A stretch of DNA of 62,855 bases, counting the filler, from Hausera hauseri (taxonomy: Eukaryota), in NCBI GenBank assembly GCA_046269625.1. It is 11 parts of 11 records of this genome, joined end to end, with 100 filler letters (N's around TTAATTAATTAA, not from the genome) between each part and the next. Parts side by side here need not be neighbours in the genome. Positions count along the whole stretch, not along the records: positions 14,147 to 19,458 come from JBJURY010282617.1; 10 more parts are not named here. One strand, written 5' to 3'. Below are positions 3,605-43,796 of the stretch, in pieces. The notes beneath the pieces were generated by a model. It did no database searches and was not told the DNA's origin. It was given only the letters and a program-made list of their open reading frames with translations. How positions within the stretch are numbered: position 1 is the first letter of the stretch; every line of letters starts with the position of its first letter. A program made the position numbers and the translations under genes.

Positions 3605-4192
3605 TTTGCTCATACATTATCGAAATTCTTAAATACATATGTACCAATAACGTTTTTACGAGACGTTACGTGCGTTATCGTCAGTCTCCGCCGTAACAAA
3701 GACCCATCTCCTAGCCCGTCAATTGTCGGCGAATTGCTACTCGTATTGCATTATCTTATACAGAGTCCAGATTCTAATATTTCGGTCGATATTGTTTTGA
3801 CATTATCTTATTTAACTGATGGAGGAAATCACCAAATACAAATGGTTATCGATGCTGATATCGTTCGGTTCTTAGTATCACTGTTGTCACATAATGACAT
3901 AAAAGTGCAAACGGCTGCATTTCGGGCAGTCGGTAATAGTGCAACGAGAACTGACGAACAAACCCAAAATGTTATTGACTATCAGTTCACACTGCTCATA
4001 CATTACCATCCTGATAAAGGTGACTTTCAAACCCAAAAGGAAGCTGCTTGGGTTATTTCAAATTTTAAAGTTAGTGCAACACCCAATCAAGTTGCATATT
4101 TCGTGCAACAAGGCGTCGTTCTGCCACCTTATAAAATGTTGTCCGTACTCGACACTCAAGTGGTCCAAGTTATTATTGACGACATCCTTAAT
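3605..4192 (+). pseudogene. Importin-alpha (alpha-3/KPNA3-4-like) ARM-repeat fragment
   Basis: [78 protein letters not shown]; no IBB domain, one ARM repeat missing, truncated. Confidence 0.9.
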
Positions 4193-4291
4193 CCCCACAA
4201 CACCTTTCACCTCAAAGACCGTCGGGCAGCTGCCGGACCTGATTACGGATGTTCGGCCGCCCAGAGATCGCCAAACCGGCGCAGTGATGTC

Positions 4292-5545
4292 ATGCGTCGG
4301 GCTGTCGCGCCGGCGCCGTCCGGACGCCCGGCGTGTTTACGTCACGCACCGCAGTGCCCATCCGTCGCCCATACCCCCTATCTTTCTCTTCATTTTTTAA
4401 TCAACAACAGAAACATATACACACACACATGGAAGGACACACTAGACGCAACACGCATCTACCACCACCTTGCCAACCTGCTAGGTTTCTCTAGTTTTTT
4501 CTTATCCTACAACGGTCTCACTATCCACAACTTCTACGATCTTCTTCACTTCAGAAAGACTTTCTTTCTTATTCATATCAACTTCAAAATCCTTGGCGGC
4601 ATGAACTCCCGATCCTCCATTGACACTACGGAAAAGCCAAAATCTATCCCGATATTACGCTGCGCCGGTACAGTAACACTCCCGGTTTCCCTTTTGGACA
4701 CCACTGTACCAAACCTGGCTTCAATTCCATCACCTCTGGTTCCAATCTGCAAACATCACCGAATCTCTCTCAAAAGCCCCTAGCCTCTTTTGCTATCTAC
4801 CAAATTCAATTAAAACTGGAATACCTAATCTTTTACAACTCTTCGAACATCCTGATCCTTACAAGGAGCTATATAATGCCGTTCTTAAGTTTAAAGAGCT
4901 TTTCTTGCATTCTATTATTCAACGTTACTTCAAGAGAACACCCTAAGCTATCAACAGCTCTCCAAATTCTTACAAATAGCCCTTAATAACTTAAAAGCAC
5001 TGGGTGTAACACGGGAACACAATGCAGATCTCCTAAGACGCTATTTTCTCCACGCTTTACCCCTACAAATTAGGAGCACGTTGACCGTGGTTGAGGAATC
5101 ATTAGATCGTAACAAACTAACCGAGTTAGCTGATAAATCATATGAATAAATGGAAAAGCACACTACCCCACTTATCTCTACCACTATCACATCAAAGGAT
5201 ACACAACAAAACGCATTACAACAACAAATAACTCAATTAAAGGCTGACAACAAGGCGCTGATAGAAACCATTAACAGTATAAAAAATAAGTTGAGCCGAC
5301 GGACCTTTTCCAGACAGAATTTTCCGGGTGCCACCCATTCCGATGGACCTCCACTGCACAACAGACGACCGCTATCGCCCGTACGATCGTCTATTTGTTA
5401 TTTTTATAACAATTTCGGAAACAATGCACATAAATGTTGCATTGGGTGCAAATTATTTACATCTAAATTTAAGTCAGGCAACAACATTTGCATCTATCAT
5501 TCTAAGGCCATAAAATGTTTACCAGGATGCAATTTCAACTCATAG
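4292..5545 (+). pseudogene. gag: Ubiquitin-like domain fused to Gag (two tandem CHCC motifs)
   Basis: 4382-4600 encodes about 73 aa ending FLSYNG...[10 protein letters not shown], with ATG at 4601. Gag motifs FWxxxYQTWL, LRRYFLHALP, LTELADK, CYFYNNFGNNAHKCCIGC. Confidence 0.8.
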
Positions 5546-5599
5546 GAGAATAAGCGACCCTAGAGTCATCGGCCACTTCTAACAAAGGTTCCACTTTAC

Positions 5600-8500
5600 A
5601 AAATTACAGCCGAAGCATAACATTTGCAGTTTTTACGTTGGAGGCAACCGTCGTTACTCCAACAAAACAAAACATTAATTTCCTCATAGACACTGGAGCA
5701 GCTGTCTCTCTGCTTCCTCCTGAACATGAGATGCATAAGAAAACAAATTTACACAAAAAATTATTCACTGCATCAGGGGCAGAACTAAACACCTTTGACA
5801 CTACCAACATCACTTTTACATTACCAGGCAGCAAAAACACATACAATTTGACATTCACAGTTGCCAATGTCCAAACACTTATGTTGGGATAAGACTTCCT
5901 ATCCCATTACCAACTACTGGTGGATTGCAGACGTTGCTGCTTGATTAACTCAAATCAATTCGAACAATCTAACTCAGTGAATATCATTTCGACGACCGAG
6001 CGGATGATCACTGACCATAAACCTGTCCTTAAAAAATCACATATTGATTTAAAGTATTAATACAATCATCCATTATTCAGAGACTACTACAATACAGTTG
6101 ACAAATATGACAATGCCAACTTTTCGGCACATTTTGCAAACAAAACCGCCCGCAACACAATTTTCAATTCCACTATATTGCACCAAATTCCACCTAGTAT
6201 TCATAGTACAACTTCTTCTCTAACTGACGCCAGGCAAATCGCAACATCATTATCACCGTCAACCACCTTATCATCACTTCCACAGGAATTGCAATCCTAT
6301 GTATTTTCTTCTTGCACTCGGATGTTGCACAAAGATAAAACTTATAAACCAGCCATGCACACTTTTCATTATATCATTACAGAACACCAAAGACCACTAC
6401 GACGAAAGGTACGACCATTATCCCCACGTAGCAGGCGGGCAGTCGAAGCCGAATTTTCAGAACTACAACGCTTAGACATTATCAGAAGATCTAAATCTCC
6501 ATGGGCATCGCCATTACATGTTGTCCCAAAAAGAACGGATCTTTTCGCCCATGCGGTGAATACAGGCAACTGAATCTAATCACAACCATGGACGCCTACC
6601 CTCTGCCTCTCATAAATGAAATCCTACATAGACTTCACGGTTCAACCATTTTCTCAAGCATCGGTCTCCATAAGGCATACCACCAAATCCCTGTAGCACC
6701 AGCAGACATTCCAAAAACGGCAATAACAACTCCTTTTGGACTTTTTGAATATCTATTCATGCCATTTGGCTTAAGCAGTGCAGCTCAAACCTTTCAGAGG
6801 CACATAGACACCGTGCTCGCAGGCTTAGACTTCGCATATCCCTACATCGACGATATTTTAATTGCCTCCTCGTCCTCTAAACAGTATACTGAGCACCTAC
6901 GCATCGTTTTCAAACGATTTCACCAAAACAATCTCCAAATAATCTTCGCAAAATGTTCATTTTTTAAACAAAACTCAATTTCGTCGGACACATTATTACT
7001 CCAACTGGACACGCTTCACAGCAAGACCGCATCACTCAACTGAAAAACATTCAATTACAACGTACTACTTCAGAAATGCGTTCCTTCCTTGGTACCTTGC
7101 ATTTTGTCCACAAATACGTGCCACATTGTTTAACCTTAACCGCTCTATTCGTTACTTTAAGTTCTGGCCAAAAGAAACAACGTATTATTTGGACGTTTAA
7201 ACTTGTTAATGCTTTTGACCACCTAAAAGCAAATCTCAAAACAGTGGAAATATTAGCCTATCCAGATTCTACATCAGAACTTTTTCTTACAACAGACGCA
7301 TCAACTATCGCAGCAGGTTCAGTACTTCACCAATTTAAAAACAATGCACATCAACATTTAGAGTTCTTCTTTAGAAAATTTACTACAAAATAACAAAAGT
7401 ACTCTACCTTCGATAGAACTTTTAGCAATGGTCCTCGCAGTCAAGCATTTTCAGCACCTATTAACAGCACGCATCTTCTGAATTCAAACGGACCATAAGC
7501 CGCTGTTGCACATCTTTACCATGAAATCTCCCTCTCTGCGTCAGGAAAGACATATATCCTATTTGTTAACTTTTAATTTTACAATAAAATATATAAATGG
7601 CATAGACAATGTAGTAGCTGATTTTTTGTCACGTTCAGTTGACTCTATAACATTTAAACCAATTCTAGATAATGAAACTCTTCGACGAAATCAACCGGAT
7701 GCTAAAACTCTCACTTCTTATAAATCTTTTAAGATCAGTGATGGCGCGGCCTTCGATACCACAGACGTTGCATGGCCTAAAATCACAATAGTTCCTACTC
7801 TCCAAAAAATAGCCTTTACAAATATTCATGCCTTACACCATCCAGGATCAAAGGCTACATGCCACCTCTTAAAACTCCAAGCTACATGGCCATCAATGAA
7901 AACAGACGTACAGACATGGGTTAAAAAGTGTACAGCATGCCAAACATTCAAAATCACTAAACAACTAAAGCCGCCACTTTATCATTTCCCTTGTGTGTCA
8001 CGCTTTGATACCATCCGTCTCAATATCGTTGGCCCTCTTCCACCAGAAAATTGTCATTAATTAATCCTTACAATGATGGACCGCGCGTCTACATGGCCAG
8101 AAGCAGTTCCACTTTGATCCACAAACACTGAATCCATAGCTGACGCCTTCATACTCATATGGCTCAGCCGATTCGGTTCACCTAAACACATTATCTCTGA
8201 TCAAGGCCCCCAATTCGAGTCGAGTCATTTTAAATCATTAGTAAATCGACTTGGCATATCTCATATCCACACAACACCCTACCACCCCCAGTCGAACGGC
8301 CTTTTAGAGCGTTTTCATTGTACAATGAAAACCTCTCTCAGAATCCTGGCTGAACAACTCGCAATGGGTAAATCTTTTACCTTTCGCTTTACTCGAATGG
8401 CGAAACACTTAATTCACATAAACTGGTTGCGCCCCGTCGGAGGCTCTATTTGGTACGCCATTACGTGCTCTTTTCGAGTTAACTGAACAAGACAACGCAC

Positions 8501-8790
8501 CCACTGACAAAACAATTCGGGCCGTCCAGAAACATTTTATTATTATCAGCAAGGACGCTTTTTTTATAATTCTACACGGCAATCAACCATACATTCCTAA
8601 CGACCTTTACACATCTAAATTTGTTTGGTTAAGAAACCAAACTCCGGTCGGCTTTCACCTACGGTACACGGGCCCCTATAAACTGTTTTTACTTCATTCA
8701 CATTACGCCATCATTGTTAAAGATAACAAAGAATAATCAGTCCATATTACTAACCTAAAACCAGCTTTATTTATTGACGATACCACATCA
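5600..8790 (+). pseudogene. pol: Pol (PR-RT-RH-IN), frameshifted
   Basis: ORF pieces 5638-5892, 6178-7043, 7076-7393 and 7506-8060, plus IN core SDQGPQFES/YHPQSNGLLERFH at about 8195-8320. Confidence 0.95.
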
Positions 8791-9070
8791 GTTGAAACAA
8801 CCTCGTTGTTGAAACCCACAAGCACCCAAACTCAATCTGACAAGCAGTCCTTACAAGCATCTTCTCAACCAGCTATTATACCTCAGCCTTCGTTGCTTCC
8901 CACTACTTCATATACCTTGTCTAACACTTCAACGACCTCACTACCTCCCATTTCAGTCAAATTCTTTACTCCACTCCATAACCAACCTTCACCAAAGTAT
9001 CAAATTTCTTTCGTCTTTTCCAACTTATCTTCTTCACTTTCTTACAATACTCCAACCTTCAATCTTCACA

Positions 9071-12609: not shown

Positions 12610-14146
12610 AATAAAATCCTCATAGATTGTTGTACGGGTTATATTGGGTAATCACATTTTTAAATAGCAATAATAAAATCTTGAGATCCTATTTAAATCT
12701 TTACCCATAATTATATGAATCAAACTTGAAGATGGACTAAGCTTCGGAGAATTCACTTGACGTTTTTAACAAAGGGAAGGGTAAATTATTTAGGATATTA
12801 TATAATAGTTATTGAATATGGTATTAGTTATTCAATTGATGTAACAGTAGAGTACTGAGTATGATGTTAAGATGAGCGAATTACCTGAAACGTTAATGCT
12901 TGATATAACCTCAGTTATGAAAGTTATTTTCTATTATTGCATAATTGACCTAAAATAGAAATGCCCTGTCAAAGTATTTATGTATGTATATAGATGTACT
13001 TAACAATTTGTATTTTATTTTATCAGATAAAAGATGGTTTTATGAAATGTTTGATGAAAGAATTAATGATTATAAACTACGAATTTGTATTCGAGGAGAG
13101 AACTATCAGGTATGTTAGCCTAAATTTGGGGTATGTCGGAAGGTGAAAACAAATTTGAAATTCCCTAGTTAATCTATTCGAGTAACGAATACTTTAAGGA
13201 TTCCGTTGATCTCAGACATCGTATATGATGAAGTACGGGAGATAACGTCAAAGTGTGGACGACAGTTATACTGAGCTTATAGTGAAGGGAATAACGAATT
13301 TAATCGAATATATTAGACTAATGAATACTTTATAGTTATACAAATGACTTTAGGATAATTTGAGTTTAATCAGACATCCGTAGAATCGCCTGTCGTACGT
13401 GAGTGTATAATGGAATCGATCGTTTCGTTGACCCTTTGACACGCCCAATTCGTATTGCACGATGTATTACTTAATTACCATTCATATAGCCAAAACATGG
13501 AACATTTGCAGTAATTCCACCCTTTATTTATTCAACACACTTAATTCATACTCTATCCACTTTTACCGTAATAATTAAATTTCCAAGTCATACCTTTTCT
13601 TTTATGCGTATATCTGATATTAAGTTTACATTATTTCCATCCATAATGGTACAAAGTATTTTATCGAAATATTAACTTTATAGTAGTTTAAACTAAATTA
13701 AATAATTAAAATATGGATATCGAAAGAATATTATTCGCAGTGTTAATGAAAGAAATAAGAATAAAAATAAGTAAAAGAAAACAGAAGCAAATCGAGAACC
13801 TAAAACTTGGTATCATTACCTTGGTGAAGAATTATTCATTGTGCATTCTTGTTGTGACATCGAATTGATAGTCTTAGGTAACACCTTATAGAACAGATTA
13901 AAGGACTCACAGAACATTCAGATACATAGGAGTAAACTGCTTAAAATAAAGGGCATAAACAGCGTGATGGAGTTTAACCCTATTAAACAAGCCAGATTTG
14001 TATCTTATTTATATGTTAGGTACTAATTAAGGTTTAAATTAACCCCNNNNNNNNNNNNNNNNNNNNNNNNNNNNNNNNNNNNNNNNNNNNTTAATTAATT
14101 AANNNNNNNNNNNNNNNNNNNNNNNNNNNNNNNNNNNNNNNNNNNN

Positions 14147-17100
14147 CTTCTAAAAATTTATCCCAGTCCTTTTGATCTTTCGCTACTACGGTCAATAAGA
14201 CCCGTAGAACTGTTGCATTCATACGTTCAACCATTCCGTTGCATTGAGGGTGATATGCGGTAGTTGTCAATCGTTCGATCTCAAAAATTTTGGTAATTTT
14301 ATCAAATAATTCGTTTGTAAAATTTCTTCCTATATCGGTTAGTATTTGATCGGGAGGTCCATATCTGCAAATAATTTTTCTCACTACCACATCTGCTAAT
14401 GTTTCCGCTTTTTGATCGATTAATGCGATCAATTCGACAAAGTGTGTTAGACGGTCTACGCATGTCAGAATATATTTGTTATTTTTGTGAGATGTAGGTA
14501 GAGGTCCTACTATATCCATAGACATGACATGCATAGGTCTATCTGGTACGTTAATCGGTTTTAATTCTGCTACATAGTTTTTCACTTTTGTTTTGTTGCA
14601 CAGACTTTGCAAGCGTCCACCCAATTCTTTTCGTCGATATAAACACTTGGCCAGTAATACTTATTTAATATCCTTTCTAACGTTTTCTTCCATGACATGT
14701 CCAGCTAAATGCGAATCATTTTCGGCCCTTAACACTTCTGTTTGTAATTCTTTTGGAATAACTACTAGTTTCCGTCCTTTTCGTTCGTAATATAAAATAT
14801 TATCTTGATTCGATGCATAATATTTATGTCCATGTCTCTGTAAGTGTTTCTTTAGCTGATGTCCTTTTGACATTTCGTCTTGCTCGGCAAATTTGACACT
14901 TGTTATATAACCTTATCTTTAGCTTGTTCTGAAGAAATTTTAATTGTTTTATTTAGTGTTAAAGCCCGTTCTCGTTTGACTAATTCCTCAAGTTGGGTCT
15001 TTTGCATGGTCGTAATTGTACTTGTTTTTGTTTTAGGTCTCGATAAAGCGTCTGCATTGATATGTTTGCTTCCGGGTTTGTACTGGAATTCAATATTGTA
15101 TCGGGAGATTTTCTCGATTCACCGATTTAGTCTACATGTCGGGTTGTTGGCCCGTCCCGTAAGCGTCGTAACAGCCTTGTGATCTGTCCGTAGACATAGA
15201 CATTAAAATGCCTTAAGGCTTCTTTTACGGCTAGTGTCTCCAGTTCAGTGACTGAATAGTTCTTCTCGGCCTTTTTAAGTGATCGTCCTCCATATGCAAT
15301 TGGATGCTCCAATTCTTTATCTTCTCGTTTCTGAGCCAATTTGTAACCATTTCCTTCTTTACTCGCGACTGTATTAATTATGAATGGTAAATTGAAATCG
15401 GGGTATCTCAATACTGGTTCAGTAGTTAGAATTTTCCTCATTTCGTCGAACGCTTTCTGTTCGACATCGGTTTATTTCCATTTTGATACCTTTTTTCAAT
15501 AGCCGATATAATGGCGCATTTATTTTCGAGTTGTCTGGTACGTAAGTGGCATAATATCCACATAAGCCTAACCAATGCCTTAATTCTTTCTGATTCTGGG
15601 GTTCCATGCAATCCGATATTTTATTTAGTAAAGATTTATCTGGTTTTGACCCTCCTTCTCCGACTATATGTCCCAGATAAGATACAGCATTTTGAGCCCA
15701 TTTACATTTCTTTGGGTTTAATTTCAATCTTGCCTGTTCCAACCGCATAAGAGTATCTTCGATGTCCTTTATGTGTTCCTCTTCTGTTCTTGATGCTATC
15801 ATTACATCGTCTAAATATGCAAACGCGCGATCGAGTCCCATTAACATTTTATTCATCATTCTGGTGAAGATAGCTGGGCCGGTTGTTATACCGAACGGCA
15901 TGACGTTAAATTCGTAGACTCCGTCGTGTGTTTTAAATGCCGTTTTATAACGGTCATCTTCTTCAATTTCTACTTGCCAATATCCCGATTGCAAATCCAA
16001 TGTGGTAAACCACTTTGCTCCTGATAGTCGGTCTAAAGCTTCTTTTACTGACGGTAGTGGAAATGAGTCTTTCATCATATGCGTGTTCAGGGCTCTGTAG
16101 TCTATACAGAATCGATGTTTTGTGGTACATTTTTTTTGACCATGAGTATTGGCGCGTACCAAGACCCGTAACTTGGTCGTATTATGTCGGCCTTTAGCAT
16201 ACGTTCTACTTCTTTGGTTATTTCAGGCCTTAACGAATGCAGTGGTGGGTACCATTTAGGCATCTTTTGCTCCTCCAAATCGATTACGTCATTAAAATCC
16301 GGTTTCTTTTTTAATGGAATGGTTAATCTTAAGGTTTCTGCTCTACCTATATCTTCCTCGTTTTTAGTGATAATCGACTTATATTTATATAATAATTCGT
16401 AAAATTGACAATATGCTTCTGATGAAAATTTTGCTTCAACGTGAGGTGGAAACTCGGCATATTTATAAGGTTTTTCTTCGATTGTTATTGCCGATACTTT
16501 GTAAGTTTACCCAATGTCGTGTTGGCATACAACTTTACGGGAGTTGGTGCATTATTAACCAATCTGACTAGTACTCTTCATGTCGTTACTCTTGTCAAAA
16601 TGTTACTGAGTATGATGCTTTGGTTAACACCTTCTTGTGGCTCAGAATATACTGGTTGGTCGTCCTCTTCTCGGATCTGGGCATAAATTAACGTTTTGGT
16701 TTTTGGTGAAATATTTTCATCGACGGGGATCCATACTTCTCCTAATTTCCTTTCTTTCATTATCTTAATCCCATTCACTGGCCCAAATTCAAGTAGTTTT
16801 CCAGTCTGTAGGTTTATTGCTACATTCGGTAATTGTTTCAGTATATCGCAACCTAGCACTACATCATCGGTTAGTTGGTCCATTACGGCGAACTTATGTC
16901 AAAGAGTTTGACTCATTAATTGAACTAAAGGATTCCATTTAAATTTTGGTTTGGATTCTTGCCCGAAGGCTCCTATGCTGCCTGGGTCTGACGACGAAGC
17001 TGAATGCAATTGTTTTCGTAGCATTGGCAGCAATGATTCCAGCTTAATAAACGATTTCTCTGATCCGGTGTCCATTAAGGCGTAGACTTCCCAATCTTCG

Positions 17101-17150
17101 ATGGTAACTTTGTGAAGAGTCTCCCTTCCGTAACCGTTCCATAACAACTT
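14147..17150 (-). pseudogene. pol: Pol: PR (ALMDTGSE), spacer, RT (RFCIDYRALN, YLDD), RNase H, IN (HDSHLAGH-type, MDIVGPLP, YHPQCNGMVER)
   Basis: ORF track pieces 16899-17147, 16578-16883, 15419-16162, 15127-15441, 14661-14873, 14091-14624. Confidence 0.95.
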
Positions 17151-17443
17151 GACACATCCTTTCGTCGTGACAAAATGATATTTTCAGTCAGATGTTTCAG
17201 TTCTTAGTTAGGGCATAAGTCATTAACTGCTATGTTATTTTTATTGCTTCTAATTAATGGTTCTTGTGCTATTGGATTTTGGGACGCCTTCATTCCTGAT
17301 GTTCCCCAGACTGTTTATCTTGATTCTATATTACGAGCTATTCTCGGCGAGTAGAGTATCCTATGGTCATCTTCCGCTCGTCGTTGACTAGCGATCTGCA
17401 TTTTCTTCAATACTCCGTATTGTTCTGTTCCTTTATAAGAGTC

Positions 17444-19458
17444 CTAATAGCAGAAGGTTTTTCGACAAAATTCCGATTTGTATGACACCATAGATGTTCT
17501 ACCATAATTTTCACATATTGGAGTTGTCGGCGGAATAATGGGCAAGGGTGCCTTAATTACTGAATACATCTTGTATCTATTTTGTCTGAGGATCGCTTCT
17601 CCTCCTTTAGGCTCACCATCATCGGATTCATCTTTTCGCGTTATTTTCTTAGTTTTCCGTTTTAGTAGAAGTGTGCGCCTTGCTCGCCGTTTATAATTAT
17701 GATAGCCGACATGTTGTTCAACGTCATTCTTCCATCGATTTTCTTCATAGGCTTTAAGCATTTTGCCCAAGGGTGTGATGATTGCGGTTAAGATTTTGAA
17801 GGAAAATTTTGTTAATGTAAATATTTCGTACCCATTTATGCTCGCTTGAATTACCGCCTTCACTAGTTGTACCAAAAAATAAATCGCTAAGAATCCCGAT
17901 GCGGCTTGTCCAAAAATTAAAAATCTTCCCATATTTTGTACAGTATTTCTGTGGTTACCCGTTGGTAATGGTTTGCACCAAGCAAGGATTCCCATTTAGC
18001 CTGGTATCGGGTATCGTCTACTACCGATACCATATCTCGCTTTAATTCGTGTGTTTGATATCGTGGTAGAGCAAGAAATTGTCGAAAAGCTTCGATTTCT
18101 TTAGGCTTGTAAATATCTTTTTGAGCTGTATCCTGAAACTTGTCATCAGTAATTCCTTTCGCTAAATTTGTTCCACTTAGTTTTTTAGGAATGATAGTGA
18201 CACCTCCATTAGGTAAGCTAACCCAATCTGTTTCGCTACGCGTAAATATTGGTTCACCCAAACTTGCTCTGCAATGCTTTAGGATTGTTGGTTGTGTTGC
18301 ATTATCTAGCAATACTCTAGTGAGGGGCACGGCTAGACGTGGGTTTTTCTGGTAGATTACGGGGAGCTCTTGTATGCATCGTTTTCCTCGACGTTGATTG
18401 GTACATCTCTTTTCTCGCATTCATATGTCAGGAGAACTTCGCCAGTAACTCGACCAAAAATTCCTTCTCTCATGGGAATAATTGGTGAGGCTAGCTCCGG
18501 GTTCCTATAAATAAGAGTTAATTTTGTCCTCATAATTTCCGTATTCAATTTGCAGTTATTAGTTATCATTTTATAATATAGCTCGGCTATCCCGACTTGT
18601 CCCTTGTAATAAAACTAATCATCTCGATTTTTCAGGTAATCTTCAATTCTAATGTCTTGCGTTTCTAAGTTATATGTTTTTGCGTTTATCTCCATTTCTG
18701 CGACGAAGAACGCTTTGTAGTTAGTGGTGAACATTACCACTTCGCAACGTGAAATCCTTTCCTTTTTATGAATTTCAATCCATGCTGATCAGACATTAAT
18801 ATCGTAGGTGTATAGTGCTCTGATACATCATCTCGTGCTCTTGAAGTGATTTCAGATTTGTCTACGTATCGTGTCCCGGTAGTTTCATTAAATTTCAATT
18901 CCCTAATTTTAATAAAATTACAGACTTTTCCGGCGAGTGGTTCCAATATGACTATGGAGTTTCTGAAGTTACAGATGCCGTCCTGTATGTGGCAATTTTG
19001 ATTCTCAGTGTATAGCTTAGTGACGCTATGGAACATCACTTTCTGTACTGGCATTTCCGATTCGTAAAAGTCAACTACTACTACATTTGCTTCTAATTCT
19101 TTCTCGGGGTCGTATTCTGCTCCACTACAGTGACCGTTATGCATATCTAACCTTCCAACTACTATCTTGTATGCTCTGATTATCTTTCCGGTTTGCATTT
19201 CTAGTTCCATAATATCCCATTTCAGTCTTCCGGTTTCTCTGGCCTGTTTGCAGTGTTGCCTTTCCGAATTCATTGGAATTGGAGGGGTCGCTGGTTTGAT
19301 TATTGAGGAATGCCCGTGCATTAGTCCACAGTGGAAAATACTACGAGATTGTCTCAGCATGCATTCCATCCCATCCAAAGATATTAACTCTTGTTGTCGG
19401 TATAGAAAATAGCTCTTCTCTTTTGTTTCCAATTTATGTGGTCTGACATCTTTACATG
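17444..19458 (-). pseudogene. env: Env-like class III fusion glycoprotein (chuvirus G / herpes gB-like) with TM and long cytoplasmic tail
   Basis: EC..SIFHCGLMHGHSSII..HCKQARETG, coiled coil ..NNCKLNTEIMRTKLTLIYRNP.., GEVLLTYEC..CIQELPV..PLTRVL..C..W, DIY, and TM FGQAASGFLAIYFLVQLVKAVI; Cys spacing fits chuvirus-type glycoproteins as recalled. Confidence 0.8.
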
Positions 19459-19558
19459 NNNNNNNNNNNNNNNNNNNNNNNNNNNNNNNNNNNNNNNNNN
19501 NNTTAATTAATTAANNNNNNNNNNNNNNNNNNNNNNNNNNNNNNNNNNNNNNNNNNNN

Positions 19559-20290
19559 TATAACATGTCAAAAGATGTGCAAGAATGGTGCAAAGTTGCC
19601 TAACTTTTGCCACAAGGAAAAATACTGAAACAAAAATCAAAGTCCCTCTCAAACCATTAGAATACCCACAGCTCCAATGGAATTTTCAACAATGGACATT
19701 CTAGGGCCATTACCTATGACAGTAAATGGAAAAAAGTGTCAGTGTTCGTCGATTTATTTTCCAGATGGCCAGTCGTGATTCCAATACCATATTTCGGATA
19801 TTACAATTGAAAACAACTCCGTATCATCCGCAAACTAATGGTTAATGAACGACAGGATGATTGGAATGAGTATATTAAGCGTTGCTTATATTCCATTAGG
19901 AATACAATACATCCTGCGACGAAAGAAACAACATTCTATTTTATGTATCTCAAAGATTCTAACAAGCCAGTCGACCTGGATTTTAAAACATCTCTCACAT
20001 TTAAAAGATATGGTGTATAAAAAGTTGTTGGAAGAAAACTGGGATACATGAGATTTGGCTGCACGGTATATAAAGATTTGCCAAAAAGAATATAAAACTC
20101 GATATGATGAAAAAGCCAAACTGCATAACTTTAAACCCTGAGATAAGATTATGCTGCACATGCCTCTGAGAAAGAGAGGAAAATCTCCAAAGTTGGACAG
20201 ACCATACAAAGGCTCCCACATGATCCAGAATGTAGACGAAACCAATACTTACCTAAAAAATATAAGGAACAAAACGGGTCTCAATTTGTC
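19559..20290 (+). pseudogene. Gypsy integrase core and C-terminus, internally deleted
   Basis: KVPLKPL, MDILGPLPMTVNGKK, TTPYHPQTNG, QDDWNEYI, SPKLDRPYKG. Confidence 0.9.
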
Positions 20291-20889
20291 AACAATAGCA
20301 CTTATAAGGATAACCTTGATAAAATGTATATCGACCAAGCCTTTAGATGTAAGATACAAATCCGTCCGAGTTGGAATATATCCCTGTATAAAATACAGGC
20401 CAATCAAAATTTAACCGTAGATGATTATGCACACATATCGAAGGTATCTACGTCACAAGCGGCCACTCCAGAATTTTGTGATCTATATGCTAACAACTCT
20501 GTTCATATCTGCTAGACTTTCGTTTGAAATATCGTATAGAATCCAATATGCGACCGGGAAAAGAACAAACGGAAAATGGTATAGATCCGCTTATTCATAT
20601 CTTCGCACAACACTATTTCAATAAACCTGATTTTCTTGTTAAATTCTACACCAGTTGTGAAAAATGGACCACGTATAACAGCGGAACCAGAATTTTCAAT
20701 TACAAAATATGGAACGATAGAGTATTGGATTGAAAACAAAACTGAGAACATAGTGTGGACCAGATTATCACAATCCTTACCTATGCTCTCATATCATTTT
20801 ACAAGGAATATACAATGTTATTGGACAGGAAAAAGACACGCGATAAATGGATACGGTAAAAAACGTCAGATGGATCAGAGGTAATAAAA

Positions 20890-21450
20890 AAGTCTCCAAG
20901 AGTGACAATGACAACTATTCCAACAAAAACGATAACTAATTCGACACCAAAAAAATAGTGACTACTCCAATAGTTGAGGTTAAGAAAGTCATTTGAGTGT
21001 TAGACATATCTGTACAGTCAACTGTACACTCTCTTATAATCACCGTAAGAGATCTGAAAATTACAAATGTAAAATTCAAATGTTTCCTTCACAACATGAT
21101 GGTAGGTGAAGGAGTATTAACACCAGAAGGGCGAACATCGGTTTGTGTCTTCTTAAAAGCAGACAGAAATCACAAAATTATAATTACAGAATTGGATGAA
21201 GATGTACGAAGTTTAGAGACCGTTAAACAGATGGAGAAGACATTATAACAAATGATTATAACAACCAAAAGTACCATTAAAAAGGTTACTTCACGGAGTC
21301 CTGAAAACATCCCGAAAGGACATCATGAAGTGATCATCACCTTAAGTGTCATTTTGTTACTAATAATTATATTGCTACCTACAGTAATTCACTGTTCAAA
21401 AATAAAACCTAGGGAAAGAAAAACTAAAATGTTACGCCAATTAAAACTGT
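20890..21450 (+). pseudogene. Type I membrane protein (Thr-rich linker, FN3-like beta domain, TM)
   Basis: TMTTIPTKTITNST..VLDISVQSTVHSLIITV..VCVFLKADRNHKIIIT..IITTKST..VIITLSVILLLIIILLPTVIHC followed by a basic tail. Confidence 0.55.
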
Positions 21451-22219
21451 TAATGGAAGATTCGCAAGACAAATCGGGTAATGACCCAAATGCGCCTCTT
21501 AGTAATAAAAAACGGCAAGCTGAAGAGCAAGCCGACCCTAAACGGGACATCCGACCGTTGACAGACATTACCCTCTCCATGTACCCAAGTACAAGACAGG
21601 GCCGTCAAACTTATTGCGATCTACGTTGAACAATCGAAATTCAAAAATATACATATTTCCAAATTACTTTAGCCGCTATTAATGTTTCTTTTGCAGTTAA
21701 AGAAGGTTCAGAAACAGTACAGCGACCGAACGGTTTCTATTACAACTCTCTTGCCAATCTGTCAGCCACAACCCATAAATATTCCGCATATTATGGTACA
21801 GCATCAATAATCCACAATAATCTAAAGGAGCATTCAGTAACCCCAAGAAGTAGTTTAATCGTGAAACTACCTAATACCTCAACAAATCTATCCGATCTCA
21901 TAGATATCGGTGAAAGCACGATTGCCGTCTACATTTCAGTGATTAAATAGAGTATCCAGATTAGAAGCAGAGCTTATACAATATTATTGACATGAGTGAA
22001 ATCGTCTCAATGACCACTGTTAGTTTGGATTCCCGATTTTATAAAAATGTCATTACCCTTCGAACCTACAATGGTCCTCTTCCAGTAATATATATGAAGG
22101 TAATGCGAAAAAATCGTATCTTGTCAAAAATACATACTCCCACAATATTCAGCGCCAGTTTCAAAGCCATTACACATACAAGAAGGAATTCTGTTCCTCA
22201 GGTCCCCGGTCACATCTAA

Positions 22220-22712
22220 AAACGATTTATTAATAATAGCTGGTAAGGCTGCCTACCTGATGACTCCAGTTAGGAAAAAGGATATGGCTCTAGCGGAAGT
22301 AACAATAATGAATTTTGATGGCAAAATCATATTTGACCAGAAAACCTGTCCTACGGACAGAATAGACAACTATAATAGTCACATAATTGGTCTAGAAGAA
22401 CCAGACCTAATAGGACAAATTGATTCCTACCCGGCAGAATGTACAATTAGAAAATACATAATTGGAAATATGGTAATTGGATTTGATCTTTATATGTTTA
22501 CCCATAGCATGCCTTGTGATTACAAAAATTTACAAGGAATGAGAGAGCTACTCTTCCATAAACTAATAAATCCAACAGGAGAAGCAACTATAAAACAAAT
22601 ACTTACCCAACACAACAATGGCAATTATCCACCAAGGACTAAAGAAAAAGCTGCCACAATTCTAAGGATCTATCAATCCATCCTGGAATACCAAAAAAGA
22701 TCGAATATCTAG
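22220..22712 (+). CDS. REXO4/ISG20-like DEDDh exonuclease-fold protein, catalytic residues apparently lost
   Basis: ALAEVTIMNFDGKIIFDQKTCPTDRIDNYNSHIIGLEEPDL aligns with the REX4-type ALARVSIVNYYG.VVYDTYVKP.EPVTDYRTAVSGIRPEHL; GNMVIGFDL resembles GRILVGHAL and EKAATILRIY resembles EDARAAMRLY. Confidence 0.75.
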
Positions 22713-23219
22713 AAACATTAACCTCAGAGGAACTTAGAAACCTAAACAAAAATACGCAAATAGGTGTGTAGGAAATTTTAAATGCTACAATGCCTATCCA
22801 GTTAGTGCCAATTCAGACGCTTCTTCAAAGTACAATCCCAACTCAGATATTTTCGTCAAGCGCAATACCAACTCAGATGCTCCCGCAGACTTCAGTTGAA
22901 AATTGTAATATTCACATAGGAATTAAAGTGTGATGACTAGATTGGTCGAATTGTAGTTTTCTATGCTCGCTTCTATCCACTCAATGCCTTTTACTACTGC
23001 TTCTAGACCTACACCACATATTAGTTTTAAAGAATAATCCATGACTGCAATCCATGAATTTCCATATTTACTGCGGCTTCCATTAACCTCAGTAAAAGCT
23101 ATATGAACGCCTCAGTTTGCAATGACCCAGACAAAGAATCGGTTGCCAATGGACCCAAGAAGTCAATTCATTGAGGCTTATGTATATATTGAACAGTGCA
23201 AGAACCCTATGGTGTAAAG

Positions 23220-23635
23220 CAGTGATTCCCAAAGTGAGAGTCACCGCCCCCTGGTGGGCGCTGCAGTGATCCAGGGGGCGGTGATGGCCACAGGTGCATT
23301 TGGGGGCGATGAATAACTTTAAGGGGGCGGTGAAAGCATAAGAGAAAGAAGAGAAGATTTAGAAAAAAAATTATATAAACTGTTTAACTCGGTGCTGGAA
23401 TTCTTGAAAGATAAAAATGATGCTTGCCGATCCAATTTAATTCAATCCAAAAGTGACATCGCTAACTTGACAGACTTGTTTCAAAAATTTCATGAAAGCA
23501 ATCTTCAGCTTCAAGGTGATGAAGTGAATTTAATAAAAACAAAATCTGTTATTTCTGCACAAAACTTCTTCTGTACAAACGAAACTTTGGACGAGGGGAA
23601 TTCAGCCAGTTCCCAAATTTATCAGGAGCAGAAAA
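23220..23635 (+). mobile_element. hAT (Buster/Charlie-type) element, left TIR plus internally deleted transposase
   Basis: TIR CAGTGATTCCCAAAGT preceded by the 8-mer GTGTAAAG (nnnTAnnn); ORF DIANLTDLFQKFHESNLQLQGDEVNLIKTKSVISA is typical of ZBED8/FAM200-like transposases. Confidence 0.85.
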
Positions 23636-23735: not shown

Positions 23736-24350
23736 ATAAACCAACGGAAGACATTAACAACAACGACCAAAACATGTACAAACGGATTTGGTTAAAGAAT
23801 TTTACAACTCCCATGTCGCATTGGTTTTGAGGCGGTTCGGTGTAAACCACTACTCGATGTTTTTGCAATACAAGACTGAACTCTTTGAACGATTTAATCA
23901 AACCTTAGGCGGTCGACTGAACAAATTCTTTACGAACCATGGCAATAAACTCTGGATAAATGTACTACCGGATATTATCTATGCATACAATCATTCGACA
24001 CTTTGTGGCATCAATGGATTACGACCGGTTGATATAACCGATAATTTTAACATGTGGCTTTATTAAAACCAAGCAGAACGACGACGACGACCAATTAAAC
24101 GCCGTCCCAAGTATAAAATCGGTGATTATGTACGTAATTAAAAGCTGAGTACACCATTCATTAAGAATTTTAATCATAAGTGGAGCGATGATGTTTCCCG
24201 AATTTCAGCCATTAATACAAAACAAGCGCCTATTATGTACGTTTTGGAAGATGAAAATAGTGACAAAATACATGGCAAATTTTACGAACAGGAACTGCTA
24301 CCGGAAAACCTGATGTGTATCGTATTTAGGAAATTCTACCTTCACGCGGC
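23736..24350 (+). pseudogene. Polinton c-integrase C-terminal half
   Basis: KEFYNS..ERFNQTLGGRL..LWINVLPDIIYAYNHS..KYKIGDYVR..HGKFYEQELL. Confidence 0.9.
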
Positions 24351-24400
24351 AAGTGGCACGTATACAGTACACCAAGTTGGATATTTGCATAACACATTGA

Positions 24401-25436
24401 GTGATGAGCATTTATTTGGTATTTGATAATAACAGATTATCAGAACATGACAACAACAATGTCAATAAACGGTTTACCATGGTTTTTGACCAGACGTTCA
24501 ATTTACGCCACGGTGCCTGGAAAGTAGCTTTGGCGGAATCCACGTTTATATTTTCACCAATAATAATACTAATACAATCTTCTGCATCTAGTTGTTTGCA
24601 GTTAGTCAGAGACTAATGGATTTCAAGTTCGCAATTAGAAGCGACAAAATTTCACATTTTATATTTTTCATTTATACAATCGATTTGTGCTCATACACAA
24701 ACATCCTATTGAAAACAATTTAAATCACTAGTTGACGCTCAGGCATGGGGTTTTAAATCTGTCTATGTGCGCTCGAAATATCTACAGCTCGGTGGACATA
24801 ACATAATTATAGAAAAATTGAACTTTTCTGAAAAAATCTTGAATACCACAGATACTACAGTAAACTGGCAAAAGACTGAATCATTCTTTTACTCTCATAC
24901 AACAGGAAATGATTTTCTTACGGAAACGGAAACAGAATTGTATGTAACCATCAAGGCAGTAGCTAAATTGGCTCTCAAGACATTTTAATTACAATTGTTT
25001 ATTATTGTCGTTTACACTACATGATAATGTTGCACATTTGGCCCTTGATGAACTATTGGCACAGAATCTGGGTTTTGAGAAACGCGAATTCGGTCAAACT
25101 GGCGGCGGCAGTCGACCTATTGTTGCTAAATACAAACCACGACTATATGGAGAATTTTATCGAATTAATATTTTAACGGATCTAACCGAACCTGTATGTG
25201 TTGGCGTAGACTGTAAACAACTATTGGCTTCTACTGGACTGGATTCGGACACGTACAAAACATCGGGCGAAACTGCTTATGTAAATATCATCAGACCAGT
25301 GTATTTATCGTTATCGCACAATGTTGTACACATGATTTCCGTGTATGTAGTAGGCGAATTTTGGAAACCCATTAAATTTCTGTTTTCAGCCAAGACCCAT
25401 TTGATGCGACATTTTCATCGTCGTCGTCGTCGATAA
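24401..25436 (+). pseudogene. Polinton minor capsid (penton-like) paralog 1
   Basis: N-terminal FTMVFDQTFNLRHGAWKVALAE; C-terminal INILTDLTEPVCVGVDCKQLL..PVYLSL..KPIKF..HF. Confidence 0.75.
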
Positions 25437-25484
25437 TAAACAAACTGTATCATTATTATCATCATCATCATCATCATCATAATC

Positions 25485-26550
25485 ACGTGTATTTACATAG
25501 TGTTACCGAGCAATAGTTGTCCGACTACTCGTCCAAACAATTGGACCAATAAATACGTTGTGGATTGGGACAATCTGTTAGATTTATCCGTCCGATGGGA
25601 GGTTGCACTGACGGAATTTAACTTTCCCTATGCAACGGTGACATTGAAAGGTGGAGTGAAAATAACGTACAACAAGACTGTTACTGAAACGAAATCACAA
25701 TCCTGTCGTCTGACAATTAATAATAATACACTGACTGTCGGAAACCCTTCCATTTGCACGACAGATATAAATAATAATGTACAAGAAGGTATAATCTGTG
25801 TTTATATTCTACAGGAAAAAGTACAGTTTGATTTAAAAAGCGAATTTACTGAAGCTTCGAGTCTATTGAAATGGCGCAAAAATTTAGACTCAAAACTGCA
25901 GAACTCAAAGGTAAGGTTGTTTCTGGTGATTACGAAGTGCACCAAGACTCAGTCCAGTATTTTGCGACACATCGGTGAAATTTGCTCTTACTGGACAAAG
26001 GGTGTGGACATTAGATATATCAATTGGCGATAACGTCTATTGTGAATCAGTAACAGATCTCTGTCGACACTTTTCGCTTAACAGGTACAAAGATATATTG
26101 AAGGCTTTCACGTCAGATACAAATGGCTACATCGCAATCTAATTGAATAAGGATGTGATTGAAATTTCCTTGGGTAAAGTTTTGGCCATGGTATTGGAAT
26201 TTGATTAACATCGGTATGAGGCGAATACGAAGGTACATGTTGCAACATCTAAACCAAAGCTTAAAAACTCACTACGTCAGATGTACATTTACACGAACGG
26301 CACCGAACGGATTCTGGTGGGTGAGGTACGTGTGCCGCTACTCCGTTAAATTTGTCAGGAAAGTAACAGATATACTTCTGGAGATAATGTCACTGTCAAA
26401 CTTGATAATCCAATGTATTTACCTGTGGCAACTACATCTATAATCAATGTTGAAGTGAATATCAGATGTGACGCGGGCTACTTTATTGAATTTCCATACG
26501 GTACCACAACCACTCTAACTCGTCATTTCCGTCGAAACCAACATGATTGA
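25485..26550 (+). pseudogene. Polinton minor capsid (penton-like) paralog 2
   Basis: LPSNSCPTTRPNN..LDLSVRWEVALTEFNFP; C-terminal MYIYTN..LVGEVRVPLLR..NPMYLPV..IEFPYG..HFRR. Confidence 0.85.
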
Positions 26551-26942
26551 TTCTGAAATTGTTTCCATTTACAGTAAACCCCAGCAAGGTGGTGAACTGC
26601 CACATTTCGTTGGTAAACAGTTTGGCTCTGGATGGTTGCGTACATTAGCATGTTTAGCATTTCCAGCGTACTGGAGCCGTGGCAGCAAAAACAGCACAGG
26701 ACGTACTATATGAAAACAAATCTATTTTACCATCACTGAAGGAACACGCCTTGTCTGAAATAAAAAGCGCTGCACCGAGAGTCGTTGACTCGGTCAAAAA
26801 ACTATTCGCTGGCAGTGGCTTGATGATGAGAAAACAAAAACGTAGAGCATCATCGAGCTCATCAGCTATAAACAAACGTCGTCGTCGTACCATTTTCGAT
26901 GGATTGATTGACAGACAGACAAATGGCATGTGCAAAATCTGA
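26543..26942 (+). pseudogene. Polinton core-like protein with QQGG/GSG protease-type sites and Arg-rich tail
   Basis: MIDSEIVSIYSKPQQGGELPHFVGKQFGSGWLRTL..AGSG..KRRRRTIFD; one frameshift. Confidence 0.75.
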
Positions 26943-27704
26943 ATTACGTATATTTGACAAACCCGCACCACAAGTTGTTATTGAAAATACGGCATTTGAA
27001 GAAATCTACTCCGTTGATTCGGTTTCAACGGACGATAACATTAACATTCAATTAAACATTATGGCATCGTACAATGAATATCTGGATTTGAACGATATGC
27101 TACTCTATGCAAAAGTCATTGTTAAAAAGGACGCGTCAGCGGTTCTCGCTGCAACAGACACTGTTACATCGGCCAATTACTTTTTCCTTATACTGTTTCA
27201 GGAGGCTTCACTGACTCTAAACAGAGTCAAAATTGAAGAAAACACCAGTCTATACAGTATCAAAGCACTCATTGAAACGGCTCTGAATTACAGCGCAGAC
27301 ACGAAAACGACTTATTTGGCGAAAATCATCGGAACGATGCCACAGCGGCAAATTGTCAGGCATGGGTGGCAGAATCAAAACCGCTTACAATGTGTGGACT
27401 GCTGTACTTTGACTTTTTCAATCAGCGGAAATACCTAATACCCGGTGTTAAAGCTGTGATTCGGCTCAAACAAAGCGACAGTGTCTTTTGTTTGAAAACC
27501 GCCGTTGAAAATCTTAAAGCCATACTGAAAATACCGGAGGCACGATTATACCTACGTCGTGTAAAGGTAGAACCATCCGTGCTCATGGGACATCGATTGG
27601 GCTTGGAAACGCAAAATGCCTGTTACTCGATACAACGCACAGAACTCGTGTTTTACACCATACCCAAAGGTTCAACTACGTTTTACAAAGATGCACTGTT
27701 TGGC
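26923..27704 (+). pseudogene. Polinton major capsid protein (double jelly-roll, PY), N-terminal part
   Basis: MACAKSELRIFDKPAPQVVI..EYLDLNDMLLYAKV..DFFNQRKYLIPGV..IPEARLYLRRVKV; runs into a gap. Confidence 0.88.
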
Positions 27705-27804: not shown

Positions 27805-28430
27805 TCACTATCGGCGATAGCAAAACAGGACGAAGTAACAATAAAAGATACCGTGCTAAAGACTTGGATTCTCAAATTCGGAGCACCGAAAGAGATACAC
27901 ACAAATTGCGGAAAAGCATTTGAATCTAAGGTATTTAGAGATATGACGGCGTCAATGGACATCAAAATGTGCTATTCGAGCGCGTATCATCACAACACCA
28001 TTGGCATAGTGGAAAGGCAATTCCGGACAACTAGGGAGTATATTGGTGCTACTCTCCACCATCGACTACGAACAGATTGGGAGGAGATACTACTAGAGAT
28101 AGAATTGACACTGAATGCGACAGTTCAGAAAACAACAGGGAAGCGCCCAGCAGAAATAATGTTTGGAAGAAAGATACACATGGAAAGATGGCATGGACAG
28201 GATAAACCAATGGAATCAACAAAGAGCAACGACTCAGTAAGGATACCAGTAAAAAGGGTATTCCAGGTCGGAGAAAGCGTACTAATACAGAGGGAATCAG
28301 GAGCAAAAGATAAGGCAAATATGAAGGGCAATACGAAGTCATTGAGAGAAAACATGACTGACGATATGTACTGCAACACGCGGACGTCAGAATGCTGGAA
28401 CGAAACGTGGAGAAACTGCGAAAATTCTTA
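27805..28430 (+). pseudogene. Ty3/gypsy integrase C-terminal part (TGTGAG-LTR family)
   Basis: WILKFGAPKEIHTNCGKAFES..SAYHHNTIGIVERQFRT; paralog at 54880-55717. Confidence 0.9.
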
Positions 28431-29976: not shown

Positions 29977-32045
29977 AGTATATCAAAGAGTATAGAGGGT
30001 TCAAGAAGAAGGGGTCACGGAGATATATCGATGGATAAAAGGACACAAAGTAGGGAAATTTATGAAAACGGAAAATTTCCAGGAAGTATCCTTCAACGAA
30101 ATAGAGGAAAGTGGGACCGATACGCAGATCTTCACGCTAGAAGAATTGTATGTCGAACAGAAGTTTAATGGACGACCAGGAATCAAATTAAAGATACAAG
30201 CAGATGGGAAGATTGCTTATTGAACACAGGGACCAGGGTAAACCTCATAAACCAGAAGACAGTGGATAAACTTACAAACACACACAGAGAAATCAGATAC
30301 CACACTACGATGTGCGAACAATAGCCCTCAGGTTGTCTGGGCACACTGACAACAGACGAAGAAATCAATGGTCTAAGGAGACGTGTAACATTCATGGTAA
30401 TGTCGGAATTACGCCCAGAAATAATAGGTGGTGTGGACCTGAAAAAGGCATTCGGAATAGAACTGGGGTGGAAACGCAAGGAAACGGAGATATTACAGCA
30501 AGATATATTCAGCCTGGAAGCCAAGTTCGGCTGTAAGGTGAGTAACCAAGAACGAGTCAACAGGGCGAAGGAAACTCTTCAGGTGAGTGACAACAAAGAG
30601 CTACTCAACATTATACAGAAATACCCAGAGTTATTCATGGCCGACAAGTAGGATATAGGGTGAACATCTCTCATCAAACACCGAACAGACACGACAGGAG
30701 CGCCAATTAATATGAAACCTCAAAGGCAACCAGTAAACATAGAAAAAAAGATCGACGAGACCATCAGAAACCTATGGGAAAACGAAATTATCAAGCCATG
30801 TAACTCAGCATATAATACACCAATGATATGCGTATGGAAGAAAGACAATAACGATGTCAAAATATGCCTGGATTTCAGACAGCTGAATCTTATAACGGAA
30901 CGGTAGGCTTTCCCCATGCCTAAAGTGGTAGAGATATTGGACAGATTATACGGGACCAAGTTTTTCACGTCAATCGATATATGGAATGCATACTACCAAG
31001 TAGAGTTATAGGAAGACTCCAAATTGAAGACGGCGTTTTTAACCAAATTAGGACAGTTCTGTTTCAACAGGATGTCATTCGGAATAACAACAGCTCCGGG
31101 CACCTTCCAAGAACTAATGAATAAAGTACTAGTGGCCATTGAACAAACAATGGTATACATAGATGATATACTAATCTTCTCTAAGACTGTAGAAGAGCAT
31201 TATAGGATACTAGAAAAGATATTGCAGCGGATCACCAAAGCCGGTCTCAGAATAAACCCAGGGAAATGTCACATACTCACGAAAGAAGTAAATTTTTAAG
31301 ACGCATAGTGAATGACAAGGGGATACAGACAGATCCTTCAAAACTGAAAGCAATTAAGTCCTTTGAGAAACCAAAATATGTGAAGAATTTGAGAAGCTCC
31401 TTAGGGATCTGCAACTATTACACAGGATTTATCCAAGGTTATGCAGCAAAGGACAAGACATTGGAGCAACTATGCGGATTGAATAACAAGAAACTAATCT
31501 GAACCGAGCAATGTAATGAAACTTTCGAGTCAATGAAAAGAGCCTTAGCCACACCGCCAATACTAGGTTTCTCTGACTTCAACAGAGAATTTATACTTGA
31601 TACGGACCCAAGCTTCGACACAGTTGGTGTGGTACTGTCACAGAAAGATAGCTTGGGGCGCGAGAGAGTGATTGCATACGTATCACATGCAGTGAACAAC
31701 CATGAAAAAGGTTTTTGTATAACTCGGAAGGAACAACTGGCCATGTATTATTTCTGTCAACATTTCAATAATTACCTATACGGGAAACGCTTCACATTAA
31801 GAGCGGACCACAAGGCAATAATATTCATGGTAAAGACAAAATACCTATAACCACCAAATTTCAGACGTGGATCAACTACCTATCCAGTCTAGACATCAAC
31901 TTGGAGTAGAGAAAAGGCACAGATCATTCGAACGCAGATATGCTATCTTGCACGAGATGTGAAACATGCAACCAATGTCTACAGCATGCAGAAACGCAAG
32001 ACTCGAAGGACAAAGTCGTAGAAACAGCAGAAACATACCAGTACC
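29977..32045 (+). pseudogene. pol: Ty3/gypsy gag end-PR-RT-RNase H, decayed
   Basis: CLLNTGTRVNLI, VKICLDFRQLN, FNRMSFGITTAPGTFQ, YIDD, FILDTDPSFD, RADHKAI. Confidence 0.92.
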
Positions 32046-36401: not shown

Positions 36402-36501
36402 NNNNNNNNNNNNNNNNNNNNNNNNNNNNNNNNNNNNNNNNNNNNTTAATTAATTAANNNNNNNNNNNNNNNNNNNNNNNNNNNNNNNNNNNNNNNNNNN
36501 N

Positions 36502-37145: not shown

Positions 37146-37239
37146 TGAAATAAAAATAAAAATTAATCCTAAGACAGATCATCGTTTTGAAACAAAACAT
37201 TTTCTCTATCTGAAGATAGAATAACCCGATCTGTAGTTG

Positions 37240-38079: not shown

Positions 38080-38090
38080 AATGTTATAAT

Positions 38091-42161: not shown

Positions 42162-42261
42162 NNNNNNNNNNNNNNNNNNNNNNNNNNNNNNNNNNNNNNN
42201 NNNNNTTAATTAATTAANNNNNNNNNNNNNNNNNNNNNNNNNNNNNNNNNNNNNNNNNNNN

Positions 42262-43770: not shown

Positions 43771-43796
43771 ATGACATATTTGCGGAATTTTTTTCT

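Follow-up and report, generated by a model that had tools for sequence, protein, structure and literature searches.

What kind of precursor is encoded by a retroelement in which a fusion glycoprotein gene (env) lies ahead of, and in frame with, pol? The question is raised by a 62,855-nucleotide stretch of DNA, here called the window, from the Hausera hauseri assembly GCA_046269625.1, which holds two minus-strand copies of a Ty3/gypsy element, copy A at 14147-19458 and copy B at 36502-42161. A sequence-only reading of the window had proposed that the ancestor of these copies made a membrane-anchored Env-Pol precursor, with gag either further 5' or absent, and that such a strategy was undescribed. 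Our analysis favours a different answer, to which we assign a probability of roughly 0.8, namely that env stands in frame before the protease and Pol in the middle of one Gag-Env-Pro-Pol polyprotein, with gag cut off by the contig end.

Two dead gypsy copies with env upstream of pol

The window is composed of 11 unlinked contigs of 4-9 kb each. All 10 gaps between them are identical (44 N, a 12-base all-frame stop and 44 N; 100 bases) and are artificial assembly joints between unlinked contigs. Because the contigs on either side of a joint are unlinked, sequence past a gap is not part of the element, contrary to the earlier suggestion that gag might lie "beyond the gap". Copy A fills the contig 14147-19458 and copy B the contig 36502-42161; the two have 2.6 kb in common at 75% identity, and both are decayed, dead Ty3/gypsy elements. 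They are bounded by the following joints:

19459-19558, no strand: artificial joint that cuts copy A inside env (100-base pattern the same at 10/10 gaps)
14047-14146, 36402-36501 and 42162-42261, no strand: further joints of the same 100-base pattern

Copy A is arranged, on the minus strand, as env, transmembrane (TM) helix, tail, protease (PR), spacer, reverse transcriptase (RT), RNase H (RH) and integrase (IN). Its parts are listed below, where P0126 and P0127 denote related proteins that are described later:

18782-19456, minus: N-terminal piece of the env ectodomain (PF24664 52-173, E 1.3e-9; tblastn to P0126 413-644, cysteines align)
18381-18788, minus: middle piece of env, in another frame and with one stop (PF24664 269-392, E 2.5e-9; 36% to P0126 646-781)
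17920-18378, minus: C-terminal ectodomain piece, in a third frame (tblastn, 27% to P0126 782-931)
17741-17929, minus: membrane-proximal region, TM helix (~17849-17905) and a second, less hydrophobic helix (PF24664 541-611, E 7e-11; hydropathy 1.9 and 1.4)
17120-17848, minus: tail/linker of 243 codons that continues the frame of the TM, interrupted by stops at 17446, 17317 and 17206 (no CCHC; no Pfam match at E<0.1)
16830-17120, minus: aspartic protease, DTG at ~17072, frame change at ~17110-17100, one stop (RVP E 8e-4; local A/B alignment)
15038-16830, minus: PR-RT spacer, RT (YLDD; 15662-16135) and RNase H, broken by several frameshifts (RVT_1 E 3e-37; tblastn)
14147-14855, minus: integrase, cut by the contig end (tblastn to P0126/P0127)

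The env of copy A begins about 20 residues past the mature Env start of P0126 (residue 413 versus 393), where it is cut by the contig end, and its ectodomain carries three further frameshifts. The C-terminal ectodomain piece (17920-18378) gave no Pfam match when searched alone. From the TM onward, the domain order of copy B is the same:

41260-42161, minus: env TM, then the linker and the start of the protease, net in one frame as far as ALVDTGSE (compensated shift at ~41982-41940; stop at 41519)
38187-41259, minus: spacer, RT, RNase H and integrase (RVT_1 E 3e-37, RT_RNaseH E 8e-16, Integrase_H2C2 E 1e-18, rve E 7e-12)
37240-38154, minus: post-integrase membrane protein with one stop (profile of the relatives' post-integrase domains, E 1.3e-6)
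36502-37239, minus: further open frame of 245 codons that runs off the contig

Directly after DTG, ~330 nucleotides comprising most of the protease domain of copy B are deleted. The frame at 36502-37239 has no Pfam match at E<=10 and no match to the downstream open reading frames (ORFs) of the relatives; intact as it is, it may be an accessory gene. The order env-TM-tail-PR-RT-RH-IN given by the sequence-only reading is thereby confirmed in copy A and, from the TM on, in copy B.

The assignment of Pol to the gypsy type stands in both copies, on the order PR-RT-RH-IN and on a gypsy-type RT. The named matches are 17.6, 297, Tf2 and ty3-gypsy, and the best PDB match of the relative P0126 is Ty3 Gag-Pol. 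The glycoprotein is chuvirus-like, as had been claimed, with PF24664 matched above its cut-off by three pieces of copy A and one of copy B (36-41 bits versus 27). The top five BFVD matches of the env of a relative are likewise chuvirus glycoproteins, driven by sequence; the likeness of chuvirus-type glycoproteins to gB is as given in PMC13524379. For the env, no sequence match was found in PDB, a word-indexed search with the N-terminal piece gave 0/231 candidates and the ESM Atlas gave no usable match.

An ancestral env-pol reading frame under selection

Copy A stays in a single frame between the TM and YGTVTEGR, and this stretch of 208 codons holds three stops against a mean of 14.4 after shuffling (P=0.0005, 2000 shuffles), and copy B has a single stop between 41936 and the catalytic DTG, against a shuffled mean of 13.6 (0/2000 shuffles as low). 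The compensated shift of copy B at ~41982-41940 contains three more stops. Of the claim of a single frame, the stretch of copy A to YGTVTEGR and the net frame of copy B to ALVDTGSE therefore hold, whereas copy A leaves the frame at ~17110-17100, inside the first protease strand, and only copy B reaches DTG in frame.

The stops fall at different places in the two copies. In the one sequencing run that was examined (X1), which may come from the source organism and hence is not independent, 576 contigs were placed on 17040-17480 of copy A, and the three linker stops of this copy are sense codons in 84%, 99.5% and 97% of the depth (11, 27 and 10 contigs). Both observations agree with the earlier view that the stops reflect decay and not a conserved stop. 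Among the pairings cited for that view, the stop of FCY* in copy A does face Q in copy B, but the pairing of DF* in copy B with E in copy A is not present in the alignments, in which this stretch aligns poorly.

Synonymous sites are saturated between the copies, with a proportion of synonymous differences (pS) of 0.74-0.83 throughout, while the nonsynonymous proportion (pN) is 0.09 for the TM, 0.29 and 0.47 for the two linker halves and 0.04 for the RT. Saturated pS together with lower pN indicates that two long-separated active lineages both retained the frame from TM to protease, and a single frame that is kept, with stops at different places, indicates that env-pol was one ORF. By these codon-level comparisons, the ancestral env-pol was one ORF that is now broken in both copies. 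The PF24664 matches, the stop statistics and the pN and pS values thus support a glycoprotein that lay ahead of the protease and, in the ancestor, shared its frame, and the comparison of the two copies adds evidence that selection long maintained the Env-Pol fusion.

Short and highly repetitive contigs could in principle place a gypsy pol beside an env-like viral fossil by chance or by misassembly. This explanation, which we regard as virtually excluded, is refuted by the independent presence of the layout in two contigs that are 75% identical, by codon-level selection that continues across the env-pol junction, by the coverage of 30/30 bins of copy A by 14,873 X1 contigs and by intact relatives with the same domain order. 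No single piece in X1 extends over the whole copy A stretch.

Relatives carry Gag features ahead of env

A profile of the TM-linker-protease stretch of copies A and B, searched against 1.84 billion proteins, matched six proteins. In P0122 the TM runs into the protease in one ORF. P0126 (HBK71150.1) is a 2,627-amino-acid (aa) ORF with the order CCHC, spacer, signal, PF24664, TM, PR-RT-RH-IN, signal, small domains and TM, and P0127 (3,735 aa) follows the same plan, with two CCHC and an N-terminus that resembles a capsid at a score below the cut-off (Ty3_capsid E 0.011). An env-based scan yielded three loci from 69 candidates in metagenome_contigs: L001, which is cut at its 5' end and has an ORF of 3,426 aa; L002, with a 3,655-aa ORF of the P0126 plan that contains two CCHC and is followed by two more ORFs, one of which is an exonuclease; and L003. 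Relatives of the env were found in 0/66 stretches in viral_contigs and 0/42 in genome_contigs. The P0126 env region, compared with proteins of 1444-4598 aa, recovered only itself among 4,724 candidates and missed P0127, so this search was insensitive. In all five retrieved records that have both an env TM and a protease (P0126, P0127, P0122, L001 and L002), the two lie in one ORF.

P0126 is a complete animal-type retroelement polyprotein whose record lists it as a hypothetical protein from a Flavobacteriaceae metagenome-assembled genome, where it is probably a binning contaminant.

The env of the window is 24-37% identical to that of the relatives, depending on the piece. The relatives are the top four of 118 matches to the RT (~51% identity) and the top eight of 74 matches to the integrase (40-44% identity), and in a quick RT tree of 73 rows the window and its relatives form a clade with an SH-aLRT (Shimodaira-Hasegawa-like approximate likelihood ratio test) value of 88. 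The rows of the trees (73 for RT, 37 for IN) were chosen by blastp score, and P0009 was dropped as a near-copy of P0127.

Since copy A starts inside env, the contig end most likely accounts for its absent gag. In 4/4 relatives with an informative 5' end, a Gag feature is located 5' of env: within the same ORF in P0127 (the sub-threshold Ty3_capsid match and two CCHC), L002 (two CCHC) and P0126 (one CCHC), and separated by one in-frame stop in L003. The proposal of an Env-Pol precursor without Gag is therefore not upheld, given a contig that ends inside env and a Gag feature in the same ORF before env in three of the four informative relatives; the attachment of Pol to the Env tail is plausible, in a precursor that would begin with Gag. 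That gag was instead lost or lies elsewhere, so that Pol would be packaged only via the Env tail, appears very improbable to us. Neither contig contains a gag, tblastn with the Gag regions of P0127, P0126, L002 and L003 gave no match in copy A or B and the lineage of the window is distant from its relatives, all of which would suit such a loss, but the artificial joints cut copy A inside env and copy B at the TM, so the missing gag is uninformative, and each of the four informative relatives has its Gag feature in place.

A variable linker between TM and protease

The tail/linker spans 243-272 aa between TM and PR across copies A and B, whose first linker halves are 50% identical. Among the relatives, the distance from TM to protease ranges from 126 to 325 aa or more, the linker sequences of window and relatives are unrelated past the first 50 aa and some of the relatives' linkers carry extra protease-like or FN3-like modules. 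With its varying length and inserted modules, the linker behaves as a flexible cargo slot. It has no CCHC, no Pfam capsid match at E<0.1 and no match to the Gag of the relatives, which accords with the earlier view that no gag lies between env and protease, and it is modelled as coil with a predicted local distance difference test (pLDDT) score of ~30, in a low-confidence model (38.4) from an alignment of only two sequences. We infer that the linker is probably a variable, unstructured spacer and not a capsid.

A length of ~250 aa, and the conservation of the first half between the copies, would nonetheless suit a short Gag, which would make the order ENV-GAG-POL, as in two oribatid mite elements (PMC13524379). 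The features missing from the linker, its coil model and the position of Gag 5' of env in the relatives make this hardly credible.

Two or three tandem protease-like domains were observed between the env TM and the RT in L001 (L001:3000-5600), P0127 (residues 2000-2260) and P0005, and L001 and P0011 carry a signal, FN3-like domain and TM as a module directly before the last protease. In the linker of copy B, the stretch 41380-41420 (minus strand) resembles, by eye and in the low-confidence linker model only, the opening hairpin of a retroviral protease but lacks the catalytic motif; it is absent from copy A and is perhaps the trace of a duplicated protease.

A post-integrase FN3-like membrane protein

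Behind the integrase, copy B encodes (37240-38154) a signal-like stretch, an FN3-like domain (~37480-37719), a Thr/Ser-rich stalk and a TM (~37330-37386; hydropathy 2.8). With the profile of the relatives' post-integrase domains, this region is the best of 840 window tiles (E 1.3e-6), and a profile that includes the domain of copy B finds fibronectin in 8/9 PDB matches, all of them weak (best E 0.011). The protein has no Pfam match, and the ESM Atlas gave no usable match for the post-integrase domain. In copy B its frame differs from that of the integrase, the end of which it overlaps, whereas in the relatives it is fused to the integrase; the separate frame is probably the result of decay. 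The FN3-like module also occurs before the protease in P0011 and L001, so it moves within the ORF. The post-integrase protein is probably an attachment factor and, being common to the clade, provides a concrete candidate for cell targeting. In a limited literature search, which is thin evidence of absence, no FN3-like protein behind an integrase was found.

The window also contains, at 19559-23635 (plus strand), the 3' end of another element of the clade, with an integrase end, an FN3-like domain and TM (~20980-21430; E 0.03 with the post-integrase profile) and then a DEDD-type exonuclease (22194-22703; E 1e-10) with homologues in the downstream ORFs of L002 and L001. Exonuclease cargo is known in rotifer elements (PMC5408684).

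A proposed polyprotein threaded through the membrane

In 5/5 relatives that include this region, mature Env is preceded by a signal-like segment whose last residues are small, and the second helix after the TM has a hydropathy of 1.2-1.75 compared with 1.9-2.5 for the TM, which is suggestive only. On a single Gag-Env-Pro-Pol polyprotein, Gag would be made in the cytosol, and the internal signal sequence would thread Env into the endoplasmic reticulum (ER), with signal peptidase cutting there. The Env TM would then stop transfer, such that the tail and PR-RT-RH-IN stay cytosolic and tethered to the membrane, and clustering of Env with membrane-bound Gag would bring protease monomers together, freeing Pol in the budding particle. 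A second signal after the integrase would export the FN3-like surface protein, its luminal domain held by a TM of its own.

On this simplest reading, the polyprotein would cross the ER membrane in the manner of alphavirus and flavivirus polyproteins. Quite tentatively, and with more doubt than confidence, we suggest that members of the clade assemble enveloped particles out of a single membrane-threaded polyprotein that supplies two surface proteins, one a gB-like fusogen ahead of Pol and the other an FN3-like attachment protein behind the integrase, with Pol anchored at both ends and freed by its own protease. If true, this would amount to a two-component entry machine of alphavirus-like topology in a retrotransposon.

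Several observations weigh against the Gag-Env-Pro-Pol polyprotein. Four of the six profile matches end env with a short tail and without protease, and the env family thus also occurs unfused. A long branch leads to the window (1.58 for RT, 1.7 for IN), the integrase tree leaves its placement without resolution and its own 5' end is off-contig, so that its putative gag is extrapolated from relatives only ~51% identical in RT. A single X1 contig, at 16.5 of a depth of 264.7, crosses the frame change of copy A and differs from it in length, and copy B is the main evidence for the frame at this site. The env ectodomain model is of low confidence (pLDDT 37.6; TM-scores 0.05-0.11, and less than 0.1 for its chuvirus matches) and does not confirm a class III fold. 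The mechanism itself would require the second helix to lie along the membrane and not cross it, and experimental support for its steps was not found in the cited literature. Lastly, the gag of L003 is followed by a single in-frame TGA (L003:3058-3060) right before the env signal, and then by env; seen in one of four informative relatives, the TGA could be either a mutation or a means of setting the Gag:Env-Pol ratio by read-through.

The stop of L003 is also consistent with one ORF that is not expressed as one protein, in which splicing, read-through or early termination would set the Gag:Env:Pol ratio and most Env would be made without Pol. Equimolar amounts of the three would seem wasteful, and splicing and internal promoters are described for such elements in Cer1 and Tor (PMC10309623, PMC4402516). 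We nevertheless judge this unlikely, though deserving of some weight, since the gag-env border is free of stops in P0126, P0127 and L002, no stop separates env from protease in 5/5 records and purifying selection acts on the tail, in the env frame, as far as the protease. Moreover, gag and pol of Cer1 are not separated by a stop, which makes a single-ORF gag-pol workable (PMC10309623).

Comparison with published elements

The description of the strategy as undescribed does not survive comparison with the literature, in which the env-before-pol layout is already published (PMC6431247, PMC13524379); copies A and B add a divergent lineage to a gene order and design that are already known. The likeness is close to planarian Burro/GYPSM1, in which an in-frame env between gag and pol forms part of one polyprotein, upstream of PR-RT-RH-IN (PMC6431247), an arrangement that in the window is the ancestral state, broken in both copies. 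The Burro env is related to mononegavirus fusion glycoproteins, and a PR-RT spacer and accessory 3' ORFs are present in both (PMC6431247). In Burro a dUTPase-like domain lies between PR and RT; the spacer of the window's copies gave no Pfam match at E<0.1. In contrast to the giant Burro ORF1 (4,873-5,140 aa) with its BIR, MATH, BCL2 and ankyrin cargo, no such cargo is seen in the retained part of the window's copies, the 5' part being off-contig (PMC6431247). The account of Burro that we draw on mentions no post-integrase membrane protein, and the likeness to the window is one of layout (PMC6431247).

In Nematoda, Bryozoa and Platyhelminthes, Chary and Hayashi report the order GAG-ENV-POL with a gB-type env; in two mites they describe ENV-GAG-POL, and they count a chuvirus-like glycoprotein in 114 gypsy elements (PMC13524379). 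Their GAG-ENV-POL errantiviruses share with the window a Ty3/gypsy Pol, a gB-type or chuvirus-like env 5' of pol and an ectodomain between a signal or TM and a TM; for these the gene order is reported, and the account drawn on here does not discuss fusion, topology or packaging (PMC13524379). The oribatid mite elements have Gag between env and pol, unlike the window, whose linker is without a Gag feature. The uncatalogued relatives P0126, P0127, L001 and L002 share with the window the env family, the nearest RT and integrase, env, TM and PR in one ORF and an FN3-like TM protein after the integrase.

The NERV elements of nematodes reportedly have one continuous gag-env-pro-pol ORF, and their extra ORFs are said to encode a small protein or a helicase; no such extra ORFs were seen in copies A and B. 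ENV before POL in NERV is cited from Sacco et al. 2022 in PMC13524379. Tor, which had been suggested as a precedent for an atypically placed env, proves not to be one, because its separate env lies 3' of pol (PMC4402516), whereas the env of the window is 5' and in frame.

Other features of the window

An intron-less fragment with Armadillo repeats (importin-alpha-like) at 3473-4270 (plus strand) lies just ahead of a gypsy gag-pol at 4700-8800 (plus strand) and is possibly captured host mRNA; a related gypsy copy is found at 58400-62500 (minus strand). Decayed pieces at 23736-27704 (plus), 27805-28430 (plus) and 42262-44500 (minus) contain integrase, possible capsid-like genes, endonuclease VII and protein-primed polymerase-like frames, and from these motifs we take them to be Polinton/Maverick-like. 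More decayed gypsy RT-RH fragments, of other families, lie at 30550-31841 (plus) and 52540-53600 (minus), and a tetraspanin fragment (E 5e-12) is located among repeats at 47744-48115 (plus).

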